From the NCBI RefSeq assembly GCF_024223415.1, contig NZ_CP100503.1: DNA of 64,000 nt, one strand, 5' to 3'. Shown in pieces: positions 15,238 through 41,716 of the stretch; the first letter of the stretch is position 1; the number at the start of each line of letters is the position of its first letter. The position numbers and the translations under genes are program-made. This stretch comes from Escherichia coli. GTDB lineage: Bacteria > Pseudomonadota > Gammaproteobacteria > Enterobacterales > Enterobacteriaceae. The notes under the pieces are model-generated. The model was given only the letters and a program-made list of their open reading frames with translations. It did no database searches and was not told the DNA's origin.

Positions 15238-16796
15238 TTCTGCACCTCGCAGCCTTCAATTTCAGCCACAATCGCATCAATATCTTTACGCAATTGGTCG
15301 ATTTTGCTGACCGTGGTTTTCAGCTCTGCATTCAACTCAGCGATATCGATAATTTCGCGAGTATCTTTCGCTTCCACATAGCTGCTCACCGACAGGTTAT
15401 AGTCATTAGCTACAACGGTCTCAAACGCGACAGATTTTGCCAGATGAGCAACATCTTCCTTGCTGGTGAATACCTGCATAATTTGTTCGATATGGGCATC
15501 GGTCAGGATATTGTTGTTGGTCTCTTTTTTGAACAGTTCGCTGGCATCAATAAACTGAACGTTGGTATCCGTTTTATGTTTGGACAGAACCAGAATGTTT
15601 ACGGCAATGGTGGTGCCAAAGAACAGGTTCGGTGCCAGTGAAATCACGGTTTCGACATAGTTATTGTCAACCAGATACTGACGGATTTTCTGCTCCGCGC
15701 CGCCACGGTAAAAAATGCCCGGGAAGCAGACAATCGCAGCACGACCTTTGGCAGAAAGATAGTTCAGCGCATGTAATACAAACGCAAAGTCAGCTTTGGA
15801 TTTGGGGGCCAGAACGCCAGCCGGGGCAAAACGCTCATCGTTAATCAGCGTCGGGTCATCGCTGCCAATCCATTTCACCGAATACGGCGGGTTAGAAACG
15901 ATGGCATCAAACGGTTTTTCATCTCTGAAGTGCGGTTCAGTCAGCGTATTGCCCAGCTTGATATCAAACTTGTCGTAGTTGATGTTGTGCAAAAACATGT
16001 TCATACGTGCCAGGTTATAGGTCGTATGGTTGATTTCCTGTCCGAAAAAGCCTTCTTCAATGATATGGTTATCAAACTGCTTTTTAGCCTGCAACAACAG
16101 CGAACCGGAACCTGCTGCCGGGTCGTAGATTTTGTTAACGTGGGTCTGCCCGTGCATAGCCAGTTGTGCAATCAGCTTAGAGACGTGCTGTGGTGTAAAG
16201 AACTCGCCGCCTGACTTACCGGCATTCGCGGCATAGTTAGAAATCAGAAACTCATAGGCATCGCCAAACAGGTCAATCTGATGTTCGTTAAAGTCGCCAA
16301 GCTTTAATCCTTCAACCCCTTTCAGAACCGCAGCCAGGCGGGCATTTTTATCCTTAACGGTGTTACCCAGGCGGTTACTGGTGGTATCGAAATCAGCAAA
16401 CAAACCTTTGATGTCTGCTTCTGAAGGATAACCGTAAGCAGAACTTTCGATAGCAACGAAGATGCTGTTTAAATCTGCATTCAGTCTGTCATTAGTATTT
16501 GCTTTCGCAGCTACGTTGCAGAAAAGCTGACTTGGGTAGATGAAGTAGCCTTTGGTTTTGATGGCATCGTCTTTAATGTCATCAGTAATTACGCTGTCAT
16601 CCAGTTTCGCATAACAGATACTGTCATCACCGGCTTCAATATAGCTGGAAAAATTTTCGCTGATAAAACGGTAGAAAAGTGCGCCCAGAACGTATTGCTT
16701 AAAATCCCATCCATCGACCGAACCCCTGACATCGTTAGCAATTTGCCAGATTTGACGATGAAGCTCTGCGCGTTGTTGAATACTTGTCATTTTCAT
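15234..16796 (-). CDS. hsdM: Type I R-M N6-adenine DNA methyltransferase M subunit (520 aa)
   Basis: SAM motif [10 protein letters not shown] and catalytic NPPY ([11 protein letters not shown]); N-terminus [25 protein letters not shown] resembles EcoR124-family HsdM as I recall. Confidence 0.85.
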
Positions 16797-16972: not shown

Positions 16973-17194
16973 ATGCAATCCATTAACTTCCGTACCGCGC
17001 GCGGCAACCTTTCTGAAGTGCTCAACAATGTTGAGGCCGGGGAAGAGGTTGAAATCACCCGCAGAGGCCGTGAGCCAGCAGTAATTGTCAGCAAGGCTAC
17101 TTTCGAAGCCTACAAAAAAGCGGCGCTGGATGCTGAATTTGCATCCCTGTTTGACACCCTGGACTCCACCAACAAGGAACTGGTTAACCGATAA
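16973..17194 (+). CDS. phd: Antitoxin Phd (73 aa)
   Basis: Sequence [73 protein letters not shown] matches P1 Phd as I recall; ATGA overlap with doc. Confidence 0.9.
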
Positions 17195-17574
17195 TGAGGC
17201 ATATATCACCGGAAGAACTTATTGCGCTTCATGATGCGAATATAAACCGCTACGGCGGCCTGCCGGGAATGTCAGATCCGGGTAGGGCAGAGGCCATTAT
17301 CGGGAGAGTTCAGGCCAGAGTTGCCTACGAAGAGATCACCGACCTTTTCGAAGTCTCCGCCACCTACCTGGTGGCTACAGCGAGAGGGCATATATTCAAT
17401 GATGCCAATAAGCGTACCGCGCTAAACAGCGCGCTGCTATTTCTACGCCGTAACGGGGTGCAGGTATTTGATTCACCTGAACTGGCAGACCTTACTGTAG
17501 GCGCTGCGACTGGCGAGATATCTGTATCTTCTGTCGCCGACACGTTACGTAGATTGTATGGTTCTGCGGAGTAG
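17194..17574 (+). CDS. doc: Toxin Doc (Fic-fold kinase, 126 aa)
   Basis: Matches P1 Doc ([25 protein letters not shown]...[19 protein letters not shown]...). Confidence 0.9.
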
Positions 17575-18917: not shown

Positions 18918-19370
18918 ATGTTACTTAACTGGCAGGGACGCCACTTCATGGAAATAAATCACTCACGAATAACATCGTATGAGATTGCGGATTACATGAT
19001 CCGCACTAAATCTCTTCTATCAGCGAAAGAACTCGCAGCAATCCTTGAAAAGGAATACCCGCATCTGGATGTCGATAAGCGCGATGTTTATCTGCGCTTA
19101 AAGGCTATCGCTGTGTCTAAGTATTCGTCTGTTTTGATTGATGACAGTACACGCCCACGTAGATTTCAGATCCACTCTCTGAATCCTGAATTCTTTCGCC
19201 GCAGCCGCGCGCCGCGCCGGTTTGATGAAAAACTCCAGAACGAACTCTATATGACGCAGGACGAAAAGGAACGCCGGGAGCACCAGCCTTGGGTAATGGC
19301 GCGTCAACTTTTCAATAAGGTGGCCCGTCAGCACCGTCATTACGGTAATGCCACATCCGCACGTATGTGA
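18918..19370 (+). CDS. lpa: Late promoter activator Lpa-like protein (150 aa)
   Basis: Size and position immediately upstream of pacA as in P1; sequence itself not recognised from memory. Confidence 0.45.
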   Translation: MLLNWQGRHFMEINHSRITSYEIADYMIRTKSLLSAKELAAILEKEYPHLDVDKRDVYLRLKAIAVSKYSSVLIDDSTRPRRFQIHSLNPEFFRRSRAPRRFDEKLQNELYMTQDEKERREHQPWVMARQLFNKVARQHRHYGNATSARM

Positions 19371-19455
19371 TTGATTGCTTGCCCGTTCCGGGCCTTTTGA
19401 CATGTGACTTTCGTTACCCTCGCGTCAAAAAGAGTTTTTACGAAAGGAAGCATAA

Positions 19456-20649
19456 GTGACCTGGGACGATCACAAGAAGAATTTTGCTCGCCTGGCGCGA
19501 GATGGTGGTTACACCATCGCACAGTATGCCGCCGAGTTTAATCTTAACCCTAATACTGCACGTCGTTATCTCCGTGCCTTCAAAGAAGACACCAGGACAG
19601 CGGACAGCCGCAAGCCAAATAAGCCAGTCAGGAAGCCACTAAAAAGCATGATCATTGATCACTCTAATGATCAACATGCAGGTGATCACATTGCGGCTGA
19701 AATAGCGGAAAAACAAAGGGTTAATGCCGTTGTCAGTGCCGCAGTCGAGAACGCGAAGCGCCAGAATAAGCGCATAAATGATCGTTCTGATGATCATGAC
19801 GTGATCACCCGCGCCCACCGGACCTTACGTGATCGCCTGGAACGCGACACCCTGGATGATGATGGTGAACGCTTTGAATTCGAAGCTGGCGATTACCTGA
19901 TAGATAACGTTGAAGCGCGGAAGGCCGCTCGCGCTATGTTGCGTCGGTCCGGGGCTGATGTTCTGGAAACCACTCTTCTGGAAAAGTCTCTCTCTCATCT
20001 CCTTATGCTGGAGAACGCCAGGGATACGTGTATTCGCCTGGTGCAGGAAATGCGCGATCAGCAAAAAGACGATGATGAAGGGACTCCGCCTGAATATCGT
20101 ATCGCGAGCATGCTAAACAGCTGTTCCGCGCAGATAAGCAGCCTGATCAACACCATTTACAGCATCCGGAATAACTATCGAAAAGAAAGCCGGGAGGCGG
20201 AAAAGCACGCTTTATCTATGGGGCAAGCTGGCATTGTTAAGCTGGCATACGAACGAAAGCGTGAAAATAACTGGTCAGTGCTGGAAGCAGCTGAATTCAT
20301 CGAGGCGCATGGCGGAAAAGTGCCGCCCCTGATGCTGGAGCAAATCAAAGCCGATCTGCGTGCTCCTAAGACCAATACCGATGATGAGGAAAACCAAACA
20401 GCATCTGGCGCTCCATCACTTGAAGATCTGGATAAAATCGCGCGAGAACGGGCCGCCAGCCGCCGCGCTGATGCCGCATTGTGGATTGAGCATCGTAGAG
20501 AAGAAATTGCCGATATCGTCGATACAGGTGGTTATGGTGATGTCGATGCGGAAGGCATATCAAACGAAGCATGGCTTGAACAGGATCTGGACGAAGACGA
20601 GGAGGAAGACGAAGAAGTTACCCGCAAACTGTACGGGGATGATGATTAA
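19456..20649 (+). CDS. pacA: Pacase (terminase) subunit PacA (397 aa)
   Basis: GTG start; length matches P1 PacA; contains the pac hexamer cluster; acidic C-terminus. Confidence 0.8.
19649..19835 (+). other. pac packaging site: TGATCA/G hexamer repeats (4 left, 3-4 right) with GATC Dam sites
   Basis: Hexamers at 19649, 19656, 19668, 19683 and 19779, 19791, 19802, 19830 (positions from codon arithmetic); P1 pac architecture. Confidence 0.8.
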
Positions 20650-22133
20650 TGGCCAGAAGTTGCGTAACGGACCCACGTTGGCGCGAGCTTGTGGCGCTAT
20701 ATCGTTATGACTGGATTGCGGCCGCTGATGTGTTGTTTGGGAAGACACCAACCTGGCAGCAGGATGAGATCATTGAGTCCACGCAGCAGGACGGCAGTTG
20801 GACAAGTGTGACCTCCGGCCATGGTACTGGTAAGTCGGATATGACGAGTATCATTGCAATACTCTTCATCATGTTTTTCCCCGGCGCTCGCGTTATTCTG
20901 GTCGCTAACAAAAGACAGCAAGTCCTTGATGGTATTTTCAAATACATAAAGAGCAATTGGGCTACTGCTGTTAGCAGATTCCCGTGGTTGTCGAAGTATT
21001 TCATTCTTACAGAAACGTCTTTTTTTGAGGTGACTGGCAAGGGTGTTTGGACAATATTGATAAAGTCCTGTCGCCCCGGGAATGAGGAGGCGTTGGCTGG
21101 TGAACACGCCGATCATCTCTTGTATATCATCGACGAAGCGTCGGGTGTGAGTGATAAAGCATTCAGTGTGATAACAGGTGCGCTGACCGGTAAGGATAAC
21201 CGTATTCTGCTTCTTTCCCAGCCTACGCGACCTTCAGGCTATTTCTACGATTCACACCACAGACTAGCTATTCGCCCGGGAAATCCTGATGGATTGTTTA
21301 CTGCGATAATACTGAATAGTGAAGAATCTCCGCTTGTAGATGCAAAATTTATACGAGCAAAACTTGCGGAGTATGGCGGTCGTGATAACCCCATGTACAT
21401 GATCAAAGTACGTGGTGAATTTCCCAAATCTCAAGATGGCTTTCTTCTTGGTCGTGATGAGGTTGAGCGGGCGACGCGGCGAAAGGTCAAGATTGCCAAA
21501 GGATGGGGCTGGGTTGCATGTGTTGACGTTGCTGGTGGCACAGGACGAGATAAGTCCGTTATTAATATCATGATGGTGTCCGGCCAGCGAAATAAACGCC
21601 GTGTAATCAACTATCGTATGCTGGAATACACAGACGTTACAGAAACGCAGTTAGCCGCCAAGATTTTCGCAGAATGTAACCCAGAACGGTTCCCGAACAT
21701 AACCATAGCTATTGATGGCGATGGCTTGGGGAAATCGACGGCTGATCTAATGTACGAACGCTATGGCATTACCGTCCAGCGTATCCGCTGGGGTAAAAAG
21801 ATGCACAGCCGTGAAGATAAGAGCCTGTACTTTGATAAGCGTGCTTATGCCAACGTTCAAGCCGCAGAGGCCGTAAAATCTGGTCGTATGAGACTGGATA
21901 AGGGTAATGAAACTATTGAGGAAGCGTCGAAAATCCCTGTAGGGATTAACTCCGCAGGTCAATGGAAGGTGATGAGTAAGGAGGATATGAAGAAAAAACT
22001 CAACCTGCACTCACCAGACCATTGGGATACATATTGTTTCGCTATGCTGGCTGATTATGTTCCCCAGGATGAAGTGCTTAGCGTCGAAGACGAAGCGCAG
22101 GTTGATGAAGCTCTTGCATGGCTTAACGAATAA
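20649..22133 (+). CDS. pacB: Pacase (terminase large) subunit PacB (494 aa)
   Basis: Start overlaps pacA stop; length matches P1 PacB; Walker-A-like GHGTGKS. Confidence 0.8.
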
Positions 22134-22136
22134 ATA

Positions 22137-22153
22137 TTTGCTCTAATAAATTG
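22137..22153 (+). promoter_or_regulatory. C1-operator-like motif TTTGCTCTAATAAATTG (operator of immunity module i)
   Basis: Consensus match just after pacB stop. Confidence 0.5.
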
Positions 22154-22284
22154 TGTTTTTTGACTGCCGATGTTACATTGAACCTGACCTCTTGCGCCTT
22201 GAGGCTTTTTCGGTTTATGCTTATCAGGCACCTCATTAAAACGGGTGCCGGGATTGGCCTCCCGCTTAAGTCTAAGGCGATACA

Positions 22285-22305
22285 GACGCCGCTCGCGTCT
22301 TTTTT
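22285..22305 (+). terminator. Hairpin GACGC-loop-GCGTC followed by T6
   Basis: Stem-loop plus T-run in the leader of immunity module i. Confidence 0.45.
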
Positions 22306-22334
22306 GTATCGGCGTACACGCACACCTCTACAAT

Positions 22335-22410
22335 GGTGGGCTGTATGGGGCTACCTTCGGGTAGGCTGGTTACCTTGGACGCCAGTAAGGCCAACTCCGT
22401 ACAGTCCACC
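22335..22410 (+). ncRNA. c4: c4-like antisense repressor RNA, module i (about 76 nt)
   Basis: Shares scaffold GGTGGG...ATGGGG...TTCGG...CTGGTT-[b']-GCCAGT-[a']-C.CCGT...CCACC with the other two modules; carries CCTTGGAC and GGCCAA complementary to GTCTAAGG (22270, 22452) and ATTGGCC/ATTGGTC (22253, 22420). Confidence 0.55.
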
Positions 22411-22470
22411 GCCAGCAAGATTGGTCTCTTCTGCGGTGGTTACATACCAACGTCTAAGGAGGCTGCCAAT

Positions 22471-22692
22471 ATGGCTACTATCCCTACCCCAACTCATCCT
22501 GAATTTATCTGGCGCTTTTACTCCTGCCAAAAACGTCACTATCACTTCGTTATTGCACCAACAGAAGATGAGGCCCGCTCTCAGCTTCCTGACGCCCCAT
22601 GTATTTTCTCTGCCCGTTTTTCCACTGATTCACGCAATTCTCTCAGTTACTGGTGCCTCCCTGTTAACGCTTCTGCTCAGGAGGGACTATGA
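22471..22692 (+). CDS. icd: Icd-like protein (73 aa), translationally coupled to ant
   Basis: 73-codon ORF (MATIPTPTHPEFIWRFYSCQKRHYHF...) with ATGA overlap to ant; AGGAGG SD. The 119-aa track ORF 22333..22692 is an upstream extension across the RNA gene. Confidence 0.6.
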   Translation: MATIPTPTHPEFIWRFYSCQKRHYHFVIAPTEDEARSQLPDAPCIFSARFSTDSRNSLSYWCLPVNASAQEGL

Positions 22693-23804
22693 GAACGTCA
22701 TTAGTCACCCGTGAAGAGATGATCGAGGCAATTGAACAGCACACTGCCTGTATCAGTACCAGGGATATACCGGGCGTTATTGCCAACTACTTCATGATCA
22801 CCAAACAACTTTACCGGAGAAAGGACAAGAACGCGGTTCACCGCATTCTGCTAACCGATATCCGCGAATACCTGCTCGAACAGGGTCATCTGAATTACGC
22901 AACCGTCGCAGCCGAAACACGCAAGGAGGCACACAGAATGAAAGCAACTAACGTTAAATCAGAAAAAATTCATGCAACTTCAGTTCAGGAATCAGAGCTG
23001 GTGGTTGTTCAGAATCAGTCTGATGAAATTCCCGTTCTGGAATGGCTGGGAGTGCGTGTAGTGACAACCAAGATCCTTGCTAAGGGGTATGGGACCGATG
23101 CGGATAACATCAAGAAGAACTTTTCCCGTAATGCTGAACGTTTTTGTGAAGGCAAGCATTTCTATAAAGTTATTGGAGATGATTTGAACAATTTGCGGGT
23201 GACTTTAAGTAACTCACAAAATCCCATCTCTCCTAAAGCCCGTTCACTCATCCTCTGGACAGAACGCGGCGCTGCCCGTCACGCTAAAATGCTCGAAACC
23301 GATCAGGCATGGGCATTCTTTGAAAAACTGGAAGACAGCTACTTCCGGCAAAAAGAACAGCAACCGGTTGCAATCCCCCAAACATTACCAGAAGCCCTAC
23401 GCCTGGCTGCCGAACTGGCTGAACAAAAGCAGCTTCTGGAACAGAAAGCCCACCAGCTAAATCAGCAGCTGGTGGCCGCCGCTCCTAAGGTCGATTTTGC
23501 CGACCGGGTATCAGTAGCTAAAGGGATCCTGATTGGGAATTTTGCAAAGGTTGTTGGACTTAAGCAAAACGCGCTGTTTGCCTGGTTACGGGAGAACGGC
23601 ATCCTGATAGCGTCCGGTGGACGTAAAAATGTGCCGTTCCAGCAGTACATCAACGCGGGGTATTTCACGGTGAAAGAAGTGGTGCTGGATGATGAAGATG
23701 GCTACCAGATACGGTTGACGCCTCAATTAACGGGTAAAGGCCAGCAGTGGTTGACGCGTAAACTGCTCGATGCTGGCTTGTTAAAACCGGTGGCGGCTGA
23801 ATAA
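22689..23804 (+). CDS. ant: Antirepressor Ant-like protein, paralog i (371 aa; AntA/Bro-N-like central domain, conserved Ant C-terminal domain)
   Basis: Conserved N-terminal 85 aa and C-terminal about 150 aa shared with four other genes in the window; immI-type context. Confidence 0.65.
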   Translation: MRTSLVTREEMIEAIEQHTACISTRDIPGVIANYFMITKQLYRRKDKNAVHRILLTDIREYLLEQGHLNYATVAAETRKEAHRMKATNVKSEKIHATSVQESELVVVQNQSDEIPVLEWLGVRVVTTKILAKGYGTDADNIKKNFSRNAERFCEGKHFYKVIGDDLNNLRVTLSNSQNPISPKARSLILWTERGAARHAKMLETDQAWAFFEKLEDSYFRQKEQQPVAIPQTLPEALRLAAELAEQKQLLEQKAHQLNQQLVAAAPKVDFADRVSVAKGILIGNFAKVVGLKQNALFAWLRENGILIASGGRKNVPFQQYINAGYFTVKEVVLDDEDGYQIRLTPQLTGKGQQWLTRKLLDAGLLKPVAAE

Positions 23805-23836
23805 TGGAAGAATGCCCGGTTGATGCCGGGCATAAT

Positions 23837-24688
23837 TTATTGCGCGCTTTCGGGGTTGTCGTTTACTGGCTGCCCCTTCTTGGTTTTACGGCTGCGCGTA
23901 ACTGATGCGGCTGACTTAACCTTTTTCTCTTCGCGAGTGATGGCAATTTGTTTTTTTACATTTTCAATATCTGCCAGGCGATATATTTTTGCTTGCGGCC
24001 AGCGGTCGCAGATGATCGGTTCTATGGAGTCATAAAGGCTAAATTTTGCTTTTTCGAATTCACCGTTGATGATAATTCCATCACGGAGAGTTTCATCGCA
24101 GATAAACACGCCACACAGTGGCACATGGTAACTCACTGATTTACCGTTATTGTAGTTAGGACTACTGGAGATGTAGTGAACGCGCAGCATTGTTTCGCTA
24201 AAGCCGTGTACGCGCATACGGAATTTTTCATCCTCCGGGTACTGCTTCATTAGCTCTTTTGTTGCTTCCAGGTTCTCTATGTATTTCGCACTGTGCTCAT
24301 TGAACCCCGCGCTTTTTTGGATGCGAATGTCCTTATCAATCAGATGAATAATGCGGCCAGCGGTCATGTTGACGCTGTTTACAGCTTCTGTCTGATAGGT
24401 CGTAACCTTACGCACACCGCGAAGGATGTTAGGCACAGGATATAAAATAGTCTTTGGGATATTGAGGTCTGGGTACTGTTCCAGTTCCCGCGCCATTAAA
24501 GTCCATTTATCAATTTCAGCCTGAATGCTGTCAGTTTCTTTGAACGGTAGAACGACAACCGGGCGTACAGGACGACCGTCGCTGGCTGTATCAACGTGTT
24601 GGGCGCGTGCAACAGCTTTTTTTAGAAAGAGATCCCTGAAGCTGACGAACTCCTGGTACAGTTGTTCGCCGTAGACATAATTTATCAT
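23837..24688 (-). CDS. c1: C1 repressor of lysogeny (283 aa)
   Basis: MINYVYGEQLYQEFVSFRDLFLKKAVARAQHVD... near-identical to P1 C1 as I recall; 283 aa. Confidence 0.92.
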   Translation of the reverse strand: MINYVYGEQLYQEFVSFRDLFLKKAVARAQHVDTASDGRPVRPVVVLPFKETDSIQAEIDKWTLMARELEQYPDLNIPKTILYPVPNILRGVRKVTTYQTEAVNSVNMTAGRIIHLIDKDIRIQKSAGFNEHSAKYIENLEATKELMKQYPEDEKFRMRVHGFSETMLRVHYISSSPNYNNGKSVSYHVPLCGVFICDETLRDGIIINGEFEKAKFSLYDSIEPIICDRWPQAKIYRLADIENVKKQIAITREEKKVKSAASVTRSRKTKKGQPVNDNPESAQ

Positions 24689-24798
24689 TGATCCTCCTCC
24701 AGAATTGACATGGTCAATAACGCCCGGCTGAGAAAACCGGTCATTACTGACCTATATTATAGAGGGATCAAACAAAAATAATAGATTTATTAGTGCAT

Positions 24799-25008
24799 TT
24801 ATTGTGAGTCTAACTGGTTAGTTGCCATGAGATATTCGATTGTGTCAGTGAGGTCATCCAGGTCGTCTTGGGTGATGCGGTACTCCTGATTGGATATCTT
24901 TGAGTAGTGTTCAGCAATGGCGCGGGCAGCGTCGGTTTCGGCAGGGTCTACAGATAAAGCGTTAGAGCAATATCTAACGTCGTCGATGGTTGGTTGAATG
25001 AAAGCCAT
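24799..25008 (-). CDS. coi: C1 inactivator Coi (69 aa)
   Basis: 69-aa ORF immediately upstream of c1 on the same strand, as in P1. Confidence 0.7.
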   Translation of the reverse strand: MAFIQPTIDDVRYCSNALSVDPAETDAARAIAEHYSKISNQEYRITQDDLDDLTDTIEYLMATNQLDSQ

Positions 25009-25247
25009 AATTATGCCTCACTGTATTGACAACACAGAGCCTGAAGCTCTGACCTACTGTTTCACCCATAATCCATGCTGGGGGTAATCTAACAACATTG
25101 CGCTGTGTGTAAGATGAGCAATGCATAGCTGTAATGCCGTTGTATAAGGTTTCCCTGTTTGCTCATTTCCTTCTGAGCCGCTCTACAACGCTGAAGACAC
25201 ATTAAATAGTGAATCCAAAGTCGTATTACGTAACGGCGGCAAAACTA

Positions 25248-25264
25248 TAATTTATTAGAGCAAT
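25248..25264 (-). promoter_or_regulatory. C1-operator-like motif (minus strand ATTGCTCTAATAAATTA) upstream of coi-c1
   Basis: Consensus match; a second site in plus orientation at about 25331-25347. Confidence 0.5.
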
Positions 25265-25390
25265 TGTCAAACAACTATGAAAAACAATCCAGTTTTTGGC
25301 TGGTGGAGTGGGATTTTTCTCTCAAAATTTATTGCTCTAATAGTTCTTGATCTTTATGCGCAGCTGGACGTAAACTGCTCTTCAGACCTA

Positions 25391-25424
25391 ATAACTTCGT
25401 ATAGCAAACATTATACGAAGTTAT
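25391..25424 (+). other. lox recombination site (loxP-like, 13-bp inverted arms, spacer GCAAACAT)
   Basis: ATAACTTCGTATA-GCAAACAT-TATACGAAGTTAT; arms identical to loxP, spacer differs at one position from GCATACAT as I recall it. Confidence 0.85.
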
Positions 25425-25661
25425 CTTAAGGGTTATTGAACATGATTAATTTACCTGTAAATCCATACAGTTCAATACCTTATCAGGTCAAATAGTGATC
25501 ACTTGATCATTTGATCAAGGTTGCGCTACGTAAAATCTGCGAAATGTTGGCAGTGTTTGTGCTCCAGATTTCGCGTAGCGCATATATCCCAAGATGGGAC
25601 TAAAAAGCTTTACCTAATCCCAGAATGGGACTAATATACTTGCCGGGATAAGGAATATGTA

Positions 25662-25964
25662 ATGAAGATTATTTCGGTAAAAACATTGAGGGATTTTTGG
25701 TCTGTGAATCCCGATGCAGAACAACCATTAAAGGCCTGGGTTGACGAAGTCTCCAAGGCCACCTGGAAAAGCCCGGCTGATATCAAAGCGCAGTACCGAT
25801 CTGCCAGCATTCTTAAAAACAGGCGGGTTGTCTTCAACATCAAAGGTAATGACTACAGATTAATTGTTGCAATTGCTTATCAGCGAGGATGGATGTTCGT
25901 TAAGTTTATTGGAACACATAAGGAATACGATGCCATCGACGCGGATACAATAGAGCTGGAGTAA
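25662..25964 (+). CDS. higB: HigB-like RelE/ParE-superfamily toxin (100 aa)
   Basis: Small basic protein (…KGNDYRLIVAIAYQRGWMFVKFIGTHKEYD) upstream of an HTH antitoxin; toxin-first order typical of HigBA. Confidence 0.6.
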   Translation: MKIISVKTLRDFWSVNPDAEQPLKAWVDEVSKATWKSPADIKAQYRSASILKNRRVVFNIKGNDYRLIVAIAYQRGWMFVKFIGTHKEYDAIDADTIELE

Positions 25965-25967
25965 ATC

Positions 25968-26327
25968 ATGAACATTAAACCTATCCGTACAGAACAAGAT
26001 TATCAGGCCGCACTACGCGCGGTCGAACCTATGTTCGATAACGAACCGGAAATGAACACCCCGGAAGGTGATTTCTTTGAGATAATGTGCCTGCTTATTG
26101 AAGAGTATGAAAAAAGACATTACCCAATTGAACCGCCTACACCCATTGAAGCGATTAAGTTCCGTATGGAACAGCAAGGGTTGACAGTGAAAGATCTGGA
26201 ACCGGCGATTGGTAAGTCGAACCGTGTTTACGAAGTTCTGAATGGAACGCGAAATTTAACGTTACCAATGATTAGGCGTTTGCACGTACAGTTTGGCATT
26301 CCTCTCGAAAGTCTGGTTGGTGTGTGA
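25968..26327 (+). CDS. higA: HigA-like HTH (XRE-family) antitoxin (119 aa)
   Basis: C-terminal helix-turn-helix (…LEPAIGKSNRVYEVLNGTRNLTLPMIRRL…); 3-bp gap after toxin gene. Confidence 0.6.
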   Translation: MNIKPIRTEQDYQAALRAVEPMFDNEPEMNTPEGDFFEIMCLLIEEYEKRHYPIEPPTPIEAIKFRMEQQGLTVKDLEPAIGKSNRVYEVLNGTRNLTLPMIRRLHVQFGIPLESLVGV

Positions 26328-26333
26328 CTTAAA

Positions 26334-27386
26334 ATGTCTAATGTCCTGACCGTACACCAAAATTTGCCTGCATTACCGGTCGATGCAACGAGTGATGAGG
26401 TTCGCAAGAACCTGATGGACATGTTCAGGGATCGCCAGGCGTTTTCTGAGCATACCTGGAAAATGCTTCTGTCCGTTTGCCGGTCGTGGGCGGCATGGTG
26501 CAAGTTGAATAACCGGAAATGGTTTCCCGCAGAACCTGAAGATGTTCGCGATTATCTTCTATATCTTCAGGCGCGCGGTCTGGCAGTAAAAACTATCCAG
26601 CAACATTTGGGCCAGCTAAACATGCTTCATCGTCGGTCCGGGCTGCCACGACCAAGTGACAGCAATGCTGTTTCACTGGTTATGCGGCGGATCCGAAAAG
26701 AAAACGTTGATGCCGGTGAACGTGCAAAACAGGCTCTAGCGTTCGAACGCACTGATTTCGACCAGGTTCGTTCACTCATGGAAAATAGCGATCGCTGCCA
26801 GGATATACGTAATCTGGCATTTCTGGGGATTGCTTATAACACCCTGTTACGTATAGCCGAAATTGCCAGGATCAGGGTTAAAGATATCTCACGTACTGAC
26901 GGTGGGAGAATGTTAATCCATATTGGCAGAACGAAAACGCTGGTTAGCACCGCAGGTGTAGAGAAGGCACTTAGCCTGGGGGTAACTAAACTGGTTGAGC
27001 GATGGATTTCTGTCTCTGGTGTAGCTGATGATCCGAATAACTACCTGTTTTGCCGCGTCAGAAAAAATGGTGTTGCCGCGCCATCACCCACCAGCCAGCT
27101 ATCAACTCGCGCCCTGGAAGGGATTTTTGAAGCAACTCACCGATTGATTTACGGGGCTAAGGATGACTCTGGCCAGAGGTACCTGGCCTGGTCTGGACAC
27201 AGTGCCCGTGTCGGAGCCGCGCGAGATATGGCCCGCGCCGGAGTTTCAATACCGGAGATCATGCAAGCTGGTGGCTGGACCAACGTAAATATTGTCATGA
27301 ACTATATCCGTAACCTGGATAGTGAAACAGGGGCAATGGTGCGCCTGCTGGAAGTTGACATCCTCCCCCACCTTCGCACTTCGTGA
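26334..27386 (+). CDS. cre: Cre tyrosine recombinase with IS-altered C-terminus (350 aa vs 343 in P1)
   Basis: MSNVLTVHQNLPALPVDATSDEVRKNLMDMFRDRQAFSEHTWK... matches P1 Cre through ...MVRLLE; last residues VDILPHLRTS are encoded by the inserted IS end. Confidence 0.9.
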   Translation: MSNVLTVHQNLPALPVDATSDEVRKNLMDMFRDRQAFSEHTWKMLLSVCRSWAAWCKLNNRKWFPAEPEDVRDYLLYLQARGLAVKTIQQHLGQLNMLHRRSGLPRPSDSNAVSLVMRRIRKENVDAGERAKQALAFERTDFDQVRSLMENSDRCQDIRNLAFLGIAYNTLLRIAEIARIRVKDISRTDGGRMLIHIGRTKTLVSTAGVEKALSLGVTKLVERWISVSGVADDPNNYLFCRVRKNGVAAPSPTSQLSTRALEGIFEATHRLIYGAKDDSGQRYLAWSGHSARVGAARDMARAGVSIPEIMQAGGWTNVNIVMNYIRNLDSETGAMVRLLEVDILPHLRTS

Positions 27387-27405
27387 CTCAGGAGGGGGAT
27401 TCCCA

Positions 27406-28638
27406 TTAGTGGGTGACGGCTGATTGCTCAGCGTCTGGTTCCTGCTTCAACGGGCGGTCTGACTGCACCGTCCCTCCACAGGCAAGTACGGCGTGCCCCG
27501 CCGCTAAAATGTTGCGAGCGCCGTTTACATCGGCGTTCGCTGTATATCCACAAGCCCGACACACGAATTTACTTTGTGTCAGGCGGTTTTCTTTCGCTGT
27601 ATGACCACAGCACGCGCAACGCTGGCTTGTGTACGCTGGCGGAACAGCAAGCACCTGACCACCACGCCAGAGCTGCTTGTACTCAAGCTGGCGGCGCATT
27701 TCATACCAGCCCTGATCCAGTATCGAACGGTTTAAACCTGATTTTGCCCGGACATTGCGCCCCGGCTGGCTGACCGTACCCGCTGCTGACTTTGACATGT
27801 TGCTGACCTTCAAATCCTCAATGACTATCATTGCGTGGTTTTTGCTGACGGTCGTTGTGACTTTGTGAAGGTAGTCCCTGCGGATATTTGCAATACGGGA
27901 ATGCAGTTGCTGTATTTTGCGTTTCTGCTTCTGCCAGTTGTTGCTGAATTTGACCCTGCGGCTTAACTGTCGCTGAAGTCTCGCCAGCTTCTTCTGGTTT
28001 TTCTGAAAACTGTTTACAGGTTCAAAGACTGTGCCATCTGACAGCGTGGCGAGTTTAGCCACGCCAGCATCCAGACCGACTATCGTTGTGCTTGTGTGAT
28101 TTGGTTCTGCCGTTTCAATTTCAACCTGAAACGAGATATACCACTGTCCCGCTAACTGACTGATTGTCGCATTTTTGATTTTACCGTTCACACGTTGAGA
28201 TTGCCGGAATTTTACCCACCCAAGACCTGACGGTAGCTTCACTCTGCGATTTTCAAGGCAGCAATATTTCTCAAAGTTCACAAAACGGATTGAGTCTCTG
28301 CCCTCATTTTTTCGTTTCCATACCGGAGCCTTAGCTGCGAGCTTTTTATCAAAACAACGTTTCCATGCGGTATGCAGGTCTTTCAGCTTTTGTTGCAGAT
28401 TGTCGGTATAAGCATCCTGTAAGAAGATATATTCCGGCATTTTTTTCCACACTGTAATCATCCGGTTCAACTCGAAAGCCGAAGGTAACTTTTCGCCTGA
28501 GCCAAGTACGCGCTTTGTCTCCGCAAGACCTAAATTCCAGACAAAACGGGCGCAACCACATAACTGCCGCAAACGCTGCGACTGTTCATGCGTTGGTTCC
28601 AGTCTGAATTTGTAGGCTTTCAGGATTAGCATCATCAT
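27406..28638 (-). CDS. tnpB: TnpB (RuvC-like, RNA-guided nuclease family) of IS-A (410 aa)
   Basis: RuvC motifs ([29 protein letters not shown]) and CxxC...CxxC zinc finger; C-terminal half near-identical to the IS-B TnpB. Confidence 0.85.
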
Positions 28639-28690
28639 TCAGTGTGTAGTAGATTTTCTTGCAATATTACTGTTTTTACGGCCAACCTCA

Positions 28691-29095
28691 ATGCAAAAAT
28701 ACAAAATCAATCGTTCAAGACATGCTGCCTTCCTTTTGCATGTTCATCTTGTCTTTGTAACAAAATACCGTCGAAAGATACTGGGAGAGTTACACTGTGC
28801 AGCATTCCATCAGTATGCAGCAGAAGTCTGCCGTGACTTTGGGGCAGAACTTAAAGAAAGTAACGGAGATGTCGATCATGTCCACATGCTGATCGAATAC
28901 CCACCAACAGTGCAGCTTTCGGTACTGGTTAACTCACTGAAAGCAGTGACATCCCGCCGTCTGCGAAACGAATTTCTTGATTTGCGGGGGGCATACGGAA
29001 AAGCCGTGCTCTGGTCGAGGTCATACTTTGCTGGCTCCTGCGGAGGTGCGCCGCTGGAAGTTGTGAAGCAATATATTCAACATCAGCGAGGCTGA
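28691..29095 (+). CDS. tnpA: TnpA Y1 (HUH) transposase of IS-A (134 aa)
   Basis: HVHLVF (HUH) motif and IS200-like size. Confidence 0.8.
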   Translation: MQKYKINRSRHAAFLLHVHLVFVTKYRRKILGELHCAAFHQYAAEVCRDFGAELKESNGDVDHVHMLIEYPPTVQLSVLVNSLKAVTSRRLRNEFLDLRGAYGKAVLWSRSYFAGSCGGAPLEVVKQYIQHQRG

Positions 29096-29200
29096 GCACC
29101 CTTCGGGCTTTTCAAGCCCGTCCAAATTCCCCTGCCGCCTTATGTCGGCGGGAGTACCCTTTGGAAGTTAAGATGGCGATTAGCCATTAACGCGTAAATG

Positions 29201-40068: not shown

Positions 40069-40605
40069 CTAACCAGGTGTTTGCTGTTGTTCAATGTATT
40101 GGCGGATGATGGATATTGGTGCGCCACCGCAGCTACTGGCAAAATAGCTGGGACTCCATAAAACGCCTTTGTAGTAATATCGGGCTGCAATATCTGGTCG
40201 ATCTCGTCGCAATAATCTACTCGATACGCCCTTGAGACTGTTCACCAGGCTGGATATCGCCAATTTGGGGGGATAGTTAATTAGCAGGTGAACGTGATCT
40301 CGTTCTCCATCCATTTCAACCAGTTCAGCTTCAAAATCAGCACATACACTTGAAAAGTAAGTGCGTAGTTTTTCTATTGCGTCATGGTCAAAAATCTGAC
40401 GTCGGTATTTTGCGACAAAGACCAGGTGAACGTGCATCAGGAAGACGCAGTGTCTTCCACGTCGGATATCAGTTTCTTTTTTTATGGACCAAAGTATAAT
40501 TTGGCTTATGAAACGACTACAAGCTTTCAAATTCCAGTTAAGACCAAATGGACAGCAGGAGCGTGAAATGAGGCGCTTCGCGGGCGCATGTCGTTTCGTT
40601 TTCAA
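40069..40605 (-). CDS. tnpA: TnpA Y1 (HUH) transposase of IS-B (N-terminus of track ORF probably over-extended)
   Basis: HVHLVF motif; homologous to IS-A TnpA. Confidence 0.75.
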   Translation of the reverse strand: MKTKRHAPAKRLISRSCCPFGLNWNLKACSRFISQIILWSIKKETDIRRGRHCVFLMHVHLVFVAKYRRQIFDHDAIEKLRTYFSSVCADFEAELVEMDGERDHVHLLINYPPKLAISSLVNSLKGVSSRLLRRDRPDIAARYYYKGVLWSPSYFASSCGGAPISIIRQYIEQQQTPG

Positions 40606-41716
40606 TCGTGCTCTGGCGCTTCAGAATGAGAATCATGAGGCCGGGAACAAATATATTTCTTATGCAAAGATGACTTCCTGGCTGGTTGAATGGAAAAATG
40701 CTACTGAAACGCAATGGCTTAAAGATTCTCCCTCACAGCCATTGCAGCAGTCACTGAAAGACCTTGAGCGAGCCTACAAAAATTTCTTTCAGAAGCGTGC
40801 CTCTTTTCCCCGCTTCAAAAAGCGGGGACAGAATGATGCATTCCGCTATCCGCAGGGCGTTAAGCTCGACCAAGGGAACGGTCGTATTTTTCTGCCAAAA
40901 CTTGGCTGGATGCACTACCGGAACAGCCGTCAGGTCTCGGGGATTGTGAAAAACGTCACTGTCAGCCAGTCCTGCGGTAAGTGGTACATCAGTATTCAGA
41001 CAGAAAGTGAAGTATCAACTCCGGTTCACCCTTCAGCATCAATAGTCGGTCTGGATGCAGGCGTGGCTAAACTCGCCACGCTGTCAGATGGCACAGTCTT
41101 TGAGCCTGTAAACAGTTTTCAGAAAAACCAGAAGACGCTGGCGAGACTTCAGCGACAGTTAAGCCGCAAGGTCAAATTCAGCAACAACTGGCAGAAGCAG
41201 AAATGCAAAATACAGCGACTGCATTCCCGTATCGCAAATATCCGCAGGGACTACCTTCACAAAGTCACAACGACCGTCAGCAAAAACCACGCCATGATAG
41301 TCATTGAGGATTTGAAGGTCAGTAACATGTCAAAGTCAGCAGCGGGTACGGTCAGCCAGCCGGGGCGCAATGTCCGGGCAAAATCAGGTTTAAACCGTTC
41401 GATACTGGATCAGGGCTGGTATGAAATGCGCCGTCAGCTTGAGTACAAGCAGCTCTGGCGAGGCGGTCAGGTGCTTGCGGTTCCGCCAGCGTACACAAGC
41501 CAGCGTTGCGCGTGCTGTGGTCATACAGCGAAAGAAAACCGCCTGTCACAAAGTCAATTCAGATGCCAGGTATGTGGATATACAGCGAACGCCGATGTAA
41601 ACGGCGCTCGTAACATTTTAGCGGCGGGGCACGCCGTTCTTGCCTGTGGAGGGATGGTGCAGTCAGGCCGCCCGTTGAAGCAGGAACCCACCGAAATGAT
41701 TCAGGCGACAGCCTGA
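40484..41716 (+). CDS. tnpB: TnpB of IS-B (410 aa)
   Basis: RuvC-like motifs and zinc finger. Confidence 0.85.

Follow-up and report, generated by a model that had tools for sequence, protein, structure and literature searches.

The window, that is, the whole 64-kb stretch of DNA analysed here, carries two ORFs between the lox site and the cre gene of a P1-like plasmid prophage. An initial annotation of this DNA had proposed a toxin-first two-gene module at this place, and both ORFs are present on the plus strand exactly as described (Table 1). The first ORF, higB, begins with an ATG, 7 nt upstream of which lies an AGGA Shine-Dalgarno motif, and ends with a stop codon at 25962–25964. The higA ATG, at 25968, follows 3 nt past this stop, so that the two genes form a toxin-first bicistron. 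The pair is additional to phd-doc, as had been supposed, since both phd and doc are present in the same window. No second copy of higBA was found elsewhere in the 64 kb. The window also encodes a type I restriction-modification system, and an IS200/IS605 element lies near the cassette, at 27355–29169. The final three codons of the window cre are replaced through read-through into the IS. The spacer of the lox site reads GCAAACAT in the window and GCATACAT in P1, P7 and all sister loci. The position of P3cre was obtained by mapping its P1 annotation via lox, with P1 coordinate 1 corresponding to window position 25408.

Table 1. Coordinates of features at and around the lox–cre interval of the window.
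Feature	Position	Strand	Description
phd	16973-17194	+	Canonical P1 addiction pair
doc	17194-17574	+	Canonical P1 addiction pair
c1	23837-24688	-	Upstream of higBA, together with coi and lox
lox site	25391-25424		13-bp inverted arms, 8-bp spacer GCAAACAT
P3cre/pR1	25511-25536	+	Retained distal cre promoter of P1; TTGATC-N14-TAAAAT, Dam GATC sites
Left junction	25584-25586		P1/P7 homology stops and D6-like cassette homology starts
Operator-like palindrome 1	25587-25601	+	TCCCAAGATGGGACT; part of direct repeat D1
Putative higBA promoter	25609-25637	+	-35 TTTACC (25609-25614), 17-nt spacer, -10 TAATAT (25632-25637)
Operator-like palindrome 2	25618-25632	+	TCCCAGAATGGGACT; between -35 and -10, overlaps first -10 base
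higB	25662-25964	+	100-aa HigB-family toxin (PF09907), RelE-fold
higA	25968-26327	+	119-aa antitoxin; N-terminal toxin-binding region, C-terminal Xre-type HTH (residues 63-115)
Right junction	26328-26333		Immediately 3′ of the higA stop; 6 nt to the cre ATG, terminator absent
cre	26334-27386	+	350 aa in the window

The product of higB matches the Pfam family HigB_toxin (PF09907) over the entire model (E = 1.1e-34, model positions 1–74 of 74) and the PHROGs family phrog_5734 with E = 1e-46. Among proteins of known structure, its residues 1–93 match HigB of E. coli K-12 and of Shigella (PDB: 5ifg, 5ycl, 6kml) with E values of about 1e-8 (8e-9 for 5ifg and 5ycl). An NCBIfam scan with HigB and HigA returned no family at E ≤ 0.01, whereas Pfam, PHROGs and PADLOC did give matches. 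We scanned 1.84 billion cluster representatives, which yielded 4506 matches at E ≤ 1e-3, and aligned the window protein and K-12 HigB with 52 diverse family representatives taken from these. In this alignment, the columns of F58 and Y89 are invariant and a further twelve show conservation of 90% or more (L9, L23, W26, W35, G62, N63, R66, L67, G84, T85, H86 and D90); the window HigB keeps the conserved residue at all 14. By analogy with other RelE-fold toxins, these residues, R66, H86, Y89 and D90 among them, are putative catalytic or RNA-binding positions.

Structural modelling led to the same family. The AlphaFold2 model of HigB, built on the family alignment, has a mean pLDDT of 96, and its top Foldseek match is E. 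coli HigB (5ifg_A; TM-score 0.84, rmsd 1.3 Å). All the HigB structures (5ifg_A, 6kml and 5ycl) fall within TM-scores of 0.79–0.84 and rmsd values of 1.3–1.5 Å, and are followed by RelE (4fxh) and YoeB. The first protein had been described as RelE/ParE-like. The RelE fold stands, but ParE identity was rejected, as HigB_toxin is the sole Pfam match and the top structural matches do not include any ParE.

In HigA, an HTH_3 domain at residues 63–115 (E = 2e-4) is the only Pfam domain, and residues 6–112 match K-12 HigA (5ifg_B) and its Shigella counterpart (5ycl_A) with E = 3e-8. These matches make HigA homologous to its K-12 namesake, with the HTH in the C-terminal part, and the two genes can be assigned to the YgjN/YgjM-type (PF09907) HigBA systems, a type II toxin–antitoxin (TA) family. 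The HMM searches of both proteins, with PF09907 for one and HTH_3 for the other, have thus borne out the original HigB/HigA designation. The module shares with E. coli K-12 HigBA (YgjN/YgjM; 5IFG, 6KML; Shigella 5YCL) the PF09907 family, the toxin-first order, a RelE-fold toxin of about 100 residues, an antitoxin with the toxin-binding part at the N-terminus and the HTH at the C-terminus, and a promoter with inverted repeats. However, the window proteins are only about 29% identical to the characterised K-12 HigB and HigA, and HigA has 138 residues in K-12 compared to 119 in the window. Moreover, the K-12 module is chromosomal, whereas the window pair resides on a phage-plasmid and is followed, without a terminator, by the unrelated gene cre. 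The same combination of a 100-aa and a 119–121-aa protein is encoded in plasmid leading regions, in par/H-NS plasmids, in the ybaB-recR gap, on a Klebsiella chromosome and in tail-gene gaps of D6-like elements. The short form of HigA is therefore stable across the sampled genomic contexts.

Directly upstream of higB lies a 25-nt direct repeat (D1), the two copies of which are 31 bp apart and each hold a palindrome of the form TCCCA-N3-TGGGACT. This motif occurs at two sites in the 64-kb window, both of them upstream of higB, compared to 0.27 sites expected by chance. The putative higBA promoter, whose -35 and -10 boxes enclose the second palindrome, agrees with the sigma-70 consensus at 8 of 12 positions. 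In our promoter scan the homologous D6-like site was called, but the window version was slightly under the threshold and remained uncalled. We then compared the 130 nt upstream of higB homologues (79–90% protein identity) from five unrelated contexts: a D6-like phage-plasmid, par/H-NS plasmids, plasmid leading regions beside psiA, the chromosomal ybaB-recR gap and a Klebsiella chromosome. In all five, two (A)GTCCC-N5-GGGA(CT) palindromes, most commonly in the form GTCCCA-N3-TGGGACT, are located 28–31 bp apart upstream of higB. In every context the second palindrome abuts a TAnnAT -10 box, despite the unrelated flanking sequence. Since the palindromes recur in such different surroundings, the cassette appears to bring along its own autoregulated promoter with putative operators. 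The geometry of the palindrome, 15 bp with the half-sites spaced by roughly one turn of the helix, would also suit binding by an HTH dimer.

The initial annotation had assumed that cre follows loxP directly in P1. This is not the case: in both P1 and P7 the interval between lox and cre contains cra (73 aa; P1 coordinates 207–428) and three cre promoters, P3cre (104–129), P2cre (283–312) and P1cre (400–424). In a three-way alignment, the window is collinear with P1/P7 from lox to about 25583 (P1 coordinate ~177) and then with the D6-like higBA cassette from 25584 to 26330, and the P1/P7 match resumes at about 26330, at the TTAAA(A)ATG of cre. As a result, cra, P2cre and P1cre have been lost from the window, while P3cre and the Dam sites have been kept. 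A tblastn search with P7 Cra produced no match anywhere in the window. The alignment thus describes the event as the exchange of about 260 bp (cra, P2cre and P1cre) for a 747-bp cassette, not a plain insertion. The earlier suggestion that the upstream region of cre is altered was correct in itself, but cre was not merely separated from this region, part of which was deleted and replaced. The surroundings are otherwise those of P1/P7: c1, coi, lox, the LexA/P2coi region and P3cre on one side, cre and c8 on the other, and an upstream ORF that stops 6–7 nt before the cre ATG. The comparison of lox–cre spacing, which had been put forward as a check, gave a clear difference, as the span that starts 41 nt ahead of lox and includes the first 117 nt of cre measures 1101 bp in the window and about 598–611 bp in other P1-like plasmids. 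We also considered whether Cra might be the equivalent module of P1, but it is a single 73-aa ORF without similarity to HigB or HigA, and P1 has no equivalent genes at this position. Searches with Cra against Pfam, NCBIfam and PADLOC gave no match.

Both ends of the exchanged segment are precise. The left junction falls between an 18-nt inverted repeat derived from P1 (25522–25539 / 25565–25582), which ends 2 nt upstream of it, and operator 1, which follows 3 nt downstream. The right junction falls exactly behind the higA stop codon, which leaves 6 nt to the ATG of cre. Neither direct nor inverted repeats were found on the two sides of the cassette (25584/26330), and on this ground arrival by a transposon or IS was rejected; no mobility gene travels with the cassette either. 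The nearby IS200/IS605 element was discounted as the carrier because it is missing from TUM1886 and from most of the cassette-bearing sister loci. Judging by these junctions, the arrival of the cassette looks like the outcome of illegitimate or microhomology-mediated recombination.

How common is this arrangement? Among 72,556 plasmids searched, 806 records matched, but the full lox-higBA-cre arrangement was present in only two, which turned out to be versions of one plasmid, pMTY1886_untypable_1 of E. coli TUM1886 (99.9% identity). The same plasmid accounts for the only full arrangement in 5,426 complete E. coli genomes (789 matching records), and no full arrangement was detected in 50,697 phage records, 23 of which matched. 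About 700 of the matching records represent P1-like plasmids that match in the flanks only and have the ~598–611 bp span, i.e., they possess cra. The frequency is therefore 1 in about 700 P1-like plasmids in complete genomes. Look-ups of the exact proteins revealed at least eight further draft assemblies or sequencing runs with the order c1-coi-lox-higB-higA-cre. Altogether, the higB-higA-cre order is found in all nine sister loci, eight of which come from independent assemblies or runs, and the higBA–cre junction is identical in each of the five sister loci inspected. Both ORFs are intact in all ten members of the lineage, in which the cassette differs at no more than 5 of 747 nt. The adjacent cre, on the other hand, varies up to dS 0.10. 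A near-uniform cassette next to such a variable cre suggests a single acquisition, after which the cassette was shuffled among diverged P1-like backbones. Our literature search for lox-higBA-cre in P1-like elements found nothing relevant, and the single occurrence of 'HigA' in the SJ46 paper is an author surname. The higBA genes themselves are already named by PGAP in the nearly identical pMTY1886_untypable_1. What is new is the location of a known kind of module, the lox–cre interval of a P1-like plasmid prophage.

The closest relatives outside the lineage reside in about 100 D6-like phage-plasmids, with 87% nucleotide identity over exactly 25584–26330 and with HigB and HigA proteins that are 90% and 96% identical, respectively, to those of the window. 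D6-like higBA (e.g., in pTB423 and pYU39_89) shares with the window the whole 747-bp cassette, including the promoter, the operators and the long 5′ leader. In D6-like elements, however, homologues of tail genes 7 and 25 flank the cassette, which has its own terminator, whereas the window copy is located between lox and cre, has no terminator and has displaced cra. The corresponding gap between genes 7 and 25 of the window is devoid of a higBA cassette. For D6-like prophages, published work (PMC6799933) already counts higBA as a second system of post-segregational killing. The cassette exemplifies how little this TA family needs to move between phage-plasmid families: the operators, the promoter and the two ORFs, without any recognisable mobility gene. 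D6 itself was rejected as the donor, as it has only a homologue of the antitoxin (D6_72, 94% identical), adjoining an unrelated RelE/HigA pair. The sampled D6-like alleles differ from those of the window by a dS of 0.6–0.7, which makes them cousins and not the direct donor.

The same comparison gives dN/dS values of 0.071 for higB and 0.042 for higA, a sign of strong purifying selection on both. Alternatively, the cassette might be no more than a passenger, neutral or in decay, that illegitimate recombination left behind, with an inactive toxin and without any present function. In favor of this, the arrangement is rare (one complete plasmid among ~700 P1-like plasmids), and TA modules do turn over and decay at the D6-like site, as seen from the orphan HigA of D6 and from higA fragments in several plasmids. 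However, the uninterrupted ORFs throughout the lineage (10 of 10 members, at most 5 differences in 747 nt), dN/dS values of 0.04–0.07 relative to the D6-like allele, and the retention of the family-conserved residues and of both putative operators make such a passenger highly improbable.

Instead, we favor a functional type II TA cassette of the K-12 HigBA kind, which took the place of cra and of both cre-proximal promoters in one recombination event and in one P1-like lineage; we estimate the probability of this explanation at about 80%. Published work on K-12 HigBA (PMC2814082) reports that mRNA is cleaved in a translation-dependent manner, that HigA autoregulates the module and that induction depends on Lon. 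If the window pair works in the same way, HigB would cleave translated mRNA on the ribosome, and HigA dimers would both neutralise HigB and repress the promoter via the palindromes. HigA would be labile in a Lon-dependent manner, and cells that lost the plasmid would consequently be arrested.

The window pair and P1 phd-doc have in common that they are two-gene type II TA modules, autoregulated in the case of phd-doc and putatively so in that of higBA, with a presumed role in plasmid maintenance, encoded on the same replicon. They differ in that phd-doc is antitoxin-first and has no sequence relationship to higBA. Doc, a kinase with a Fic fold, acts on EF-Tu and is not a RelE-fold ribosome-dependent RNase. 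In the reading that we favor, the cassette would add a second module for stabilisation and competition that does not depend on phd-doc. In particular, displacement by an incompatible P1-like plasmid that supplies Phd but not HigA would lead to cell arrest, and a TA system unlike phd-doc would help one P1-like plasmid to resist displacement by a rival that shares phd-doc. By analogy with known systems, extra stabilisation and competition, useful against displacement by other P1-like plasmids, is most likely the role of the cassette. The gain in stability itself may be small, as P1-like plasmids already possess phd-doc, partition and Cre/lox, and the rarity of the arrangement (1 in ~700) speaks against a large advantage.

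A role in defence against phages had to be weighed as well, because the nearest matches in the PADLOC database are components of PD-lambda-2. HigB matches PD-Lambda-2_A (PDLC03979) with E = 1.1e-41 over practically its full length (positions 1–96 of 97), and HigA matches PD-Lambda-2_B with E = 1e-42, but only at profile positions 1–119 of 402, the HigA-like N-terminus. Vassallo et al. (2022; PMC9519451) described PD-lambda-2 of ECOR42 as a system that confers protection from lambda-vir through abortive infection. Its B protein, of about 400 residues, is a fusion of a HigA-like domain with an M78 peptidase (ImmA/IrrE, PF06114); B is toxic and is rescued by A, a polarity reversed relative to HigBA, and a third component, C (PF14350), is necessary for defence (PMC9519451). 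The likeness therefore consists of a PF09907 HigB-like component A and a HigA-like N-terminus of component B. Membership of the window pair in PD-lambda-2 was rejected, since the window lacks both the M78 peptidase domain and gene C, and the next gene is cre. The pair looks like a plain two-gene relative from which PD-lambda-2-like systems were elaborated. Nevertheless, the reversed polarity of the nearest defence-database match means that the toxin and antitoxin roles within the clade are not beyond question.

On these grounds, one might propose that the cassette acts mainly as an anti-phage abortive infection system that protects the lysogen or prophage, with addiction being secondary. Besides the PADLOC matches and the activity of PD-lambda-2 against lambda-vir, this would agree with the type I restriction-modification system of the window, which indicates that the element gathers defence cargo, and with the moron-like gap between tail genes that the cassette occupies in D6-like elements. 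Yet PD-lambda-2 requires three components, two parts of which, the peptidase domain and the PF14350 gene, are missing here, and none of the papers we consulted described a canonical two-gene HigBA of the PF09907 kind as acting in defence. With nothing specific in its favor, we regard a mainly anti-phage function as unlikely, although it is compatible with the cassette being a functional TA module as favored above.

Next, we turned to the consequences of the exchange for cre. The D6-like cassette has a terminator 3′ of higA (GGCGGTC-TGTAT-GACCGCC followed by a T-run; -14.8 kcal/mol, z = -2.55), but it was not carried over, and the higA–cre gap of the window has no terminator-like fold. In the scanned region 25300–27500, which covers higB, higA and cre, we found no terminator on the plus strand and, at the scan threshold, no plus-strand promoter, including a cre-proximal one inside higA. 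With P2cre and P1cre gone, cre could be transcribed only from P3cre and/or the higBA promoter. Given its position, the retained P3cre now transcribes into higBA, and cre is probably the third gene of the higBA operon. In the TA reading that we favor, cre would be expressed as a third cistron from both the retained P3cre and the HigA-repressed higBA promoter. The distance between the upstream stop codon and the cre ATG is 6 nt for higA and 7 nt for cra in P1, and this similarity suggests that cre is still coupled in translation to the ORF in front of it. Seven of nine sister loci have an intact cre (343 aa), and its omega values are 0.03–0.07 in five of six comparisons; in the sixth, with TUM1886, there are no differences at all. 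Such purifying selection argues that cre is still functional in the lineage.

These observations could also be read in another way, namely, that the cassette was co-opted chiefly as a regulatory front end of cre, providing a tightly autoregulated promoter and a coupling ORF instead of cra, P2cre and P1cre, with any toxin activity being incidental. The swap is indeed precise, starting 3 nt ahead of operator 1 and ending at the higA stop, and the donor terminator was dropped. The 6-nt spacing before the cre ATG nearly reproduces the 7 nt of cra-cre, and cre is intact and constrained with no proximal promoter of its own detected in the scan. However, higB is under constraint just like higA (omega 0.071) and has lost none of its conserved residues, which would be surprising if nothing but the promoter and higA counted. 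The retained P3cre may suffice for cre, and the precise junction could be a matter of chance if only viable products survived. Taken together, a chiefly regulatory role seems improbable to us.

A more tentative idea, which we consider possible but not probable, goes along with the favored TA function: having been captured in an antitoxin-repressed operon, cre could be expressed at a level set by the HigA:HigB ratio, rising when HigA is degraded or diluted. If so, stress, activation of Lon or a drop in plasmid copy number would raise Cre, and recombination at lox (dimer resolution or cyclisation) would be coupled to TA activation. The lineage would further demonstrate that a P1-type plasmid prophage can be maintained in the long term without cra and without the two proximal promoters of cre. 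In any event, the lineage represents a natural cra knock-out without two of the three mapped cre promoters, which has persisted in at least nine independent isolates. It bears on the role of cra and on how little regulation of cre P1 needs. As for other contents of the lox–cre interval, pO26_EH2252_2 carries cra plus an additional 131-aa ORF there.

Judged from sequence comparison, the backbones of the plasmids that carry the higBA cassette (the HigB/HigA toxin–antitoxin pair between lox and cre) are mosaic. Window positions 19352–27354 share 96.1% overall identity with the TUM1886 plasmid, a near-identical complete relative at lox-higBA-cre, across pacA-c1-cre, and the cassette and cre are identical between the two. 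Among the sister loci, which have the same higB-higA-cre order, the cassettes differ at no more than 5 of 747 positions, while cre dS reaches 0.10.

Over the 1101 bp from 41 nt before lox to 117 nt into cre, the TUM1886 plasmid matches the window at 99.9% identity, and the sole mismatch falls in the lox spacer. The window spacer (25404–25411) reads GCAAACAT; each of the nine sister loci, TUM1886 included, has GCATACAT, as do P1 and P7. This difference may be either a real mutation or a sequencing error. If it is real, identical sites would still recombine, and recombination with wild-type loxP would be expected to be impaired.

The left junction of the cassette lies 2 nt beyond the end of an 18-nt inverted repeat, which comes from P1/P7 and overlaps the -10 element of P3cre. 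The repeat may be a former recombination hot spot. In the P1-like plasmid pO26_EH2252_2 (L025, NZ_AP027178.1), cra and cre are separated by an additional 131-aa ORF (1103–1498) that shares 4 nt with the start of cre, so that the lox–cre interval is variable in at least two lineages. The product matches phrog_20152, of unknown function; a Pfam search with it gave no match. A second PF09907 HigB-family gene (103 aa, incomplete at the locus end) was observed in sister plasmid L010 (GCA_043764335.1) at 8142–8303, about 3.5 kb downstream of cre.

In phage D6, the gap between genes 7 and 25 (locus L001, 3240–4367) is occupied by D6_70, which is an unrelated toxin of the RelE type, and by D6_71, the HigA that goes with it. 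Next comes D6_72, an orphan antitoxin sharing 94% identity with HigA of the window. Several D6-like plasmids (hits H154–H163) retain higA alone or higA fragments. This pattern looks like toxin–antitoxin turnover that leaves behind a possible anti-addiction antitoxin. Such a leftover D6-type antitoxin might neutralise HigB of the window lineage.

At its other end, cre is interrupted within its last three codons by an IS200/IS605-family element. As a result of the insertion, the window Cre has 350 aa and ends in ...LLEVDILPHLRTS in place of ...LLEDGD; c8 is moved 1.8 kb away. TUM1886 lacks this insertion, but the sister loci L011 (GCA_043592765.1) and L013 (SRR30325319) both have it. Two further 410-aa ORFs (40484–41716 and 62764–63996) have a 647-nt stretch in common with the cre-located tnpB at 96% identity, giving three related TnpB genes in the window.

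Directly upstream of phd-doc, three neighbouring minus-strand ORFs (10761–16796) were observed that together resemble a full type I restriction-modification system. Besides hsdM, the 1038-aa and 412-aa ORFs are taken to be hsdR and hsdS, respectively, by size and position only.

Coordinates and supporting matches of features in the window
Feature	Position	Strand	Details
hsdM	within 10761–16796	-	520-aa ORF; TIGR00497, E=4e-195
18-nt inverted repeat	25522–25539 / 25565–25582		89% complementary; 25-nt loop
IS200/IS605-family element	27355–29169		TnpB NF040570 and TnpA NF033573 matches
tnpB	27406–28638	-	NF040570, E=8e-108
tnpA	28691–29095	+	NF033573, E=8e-41
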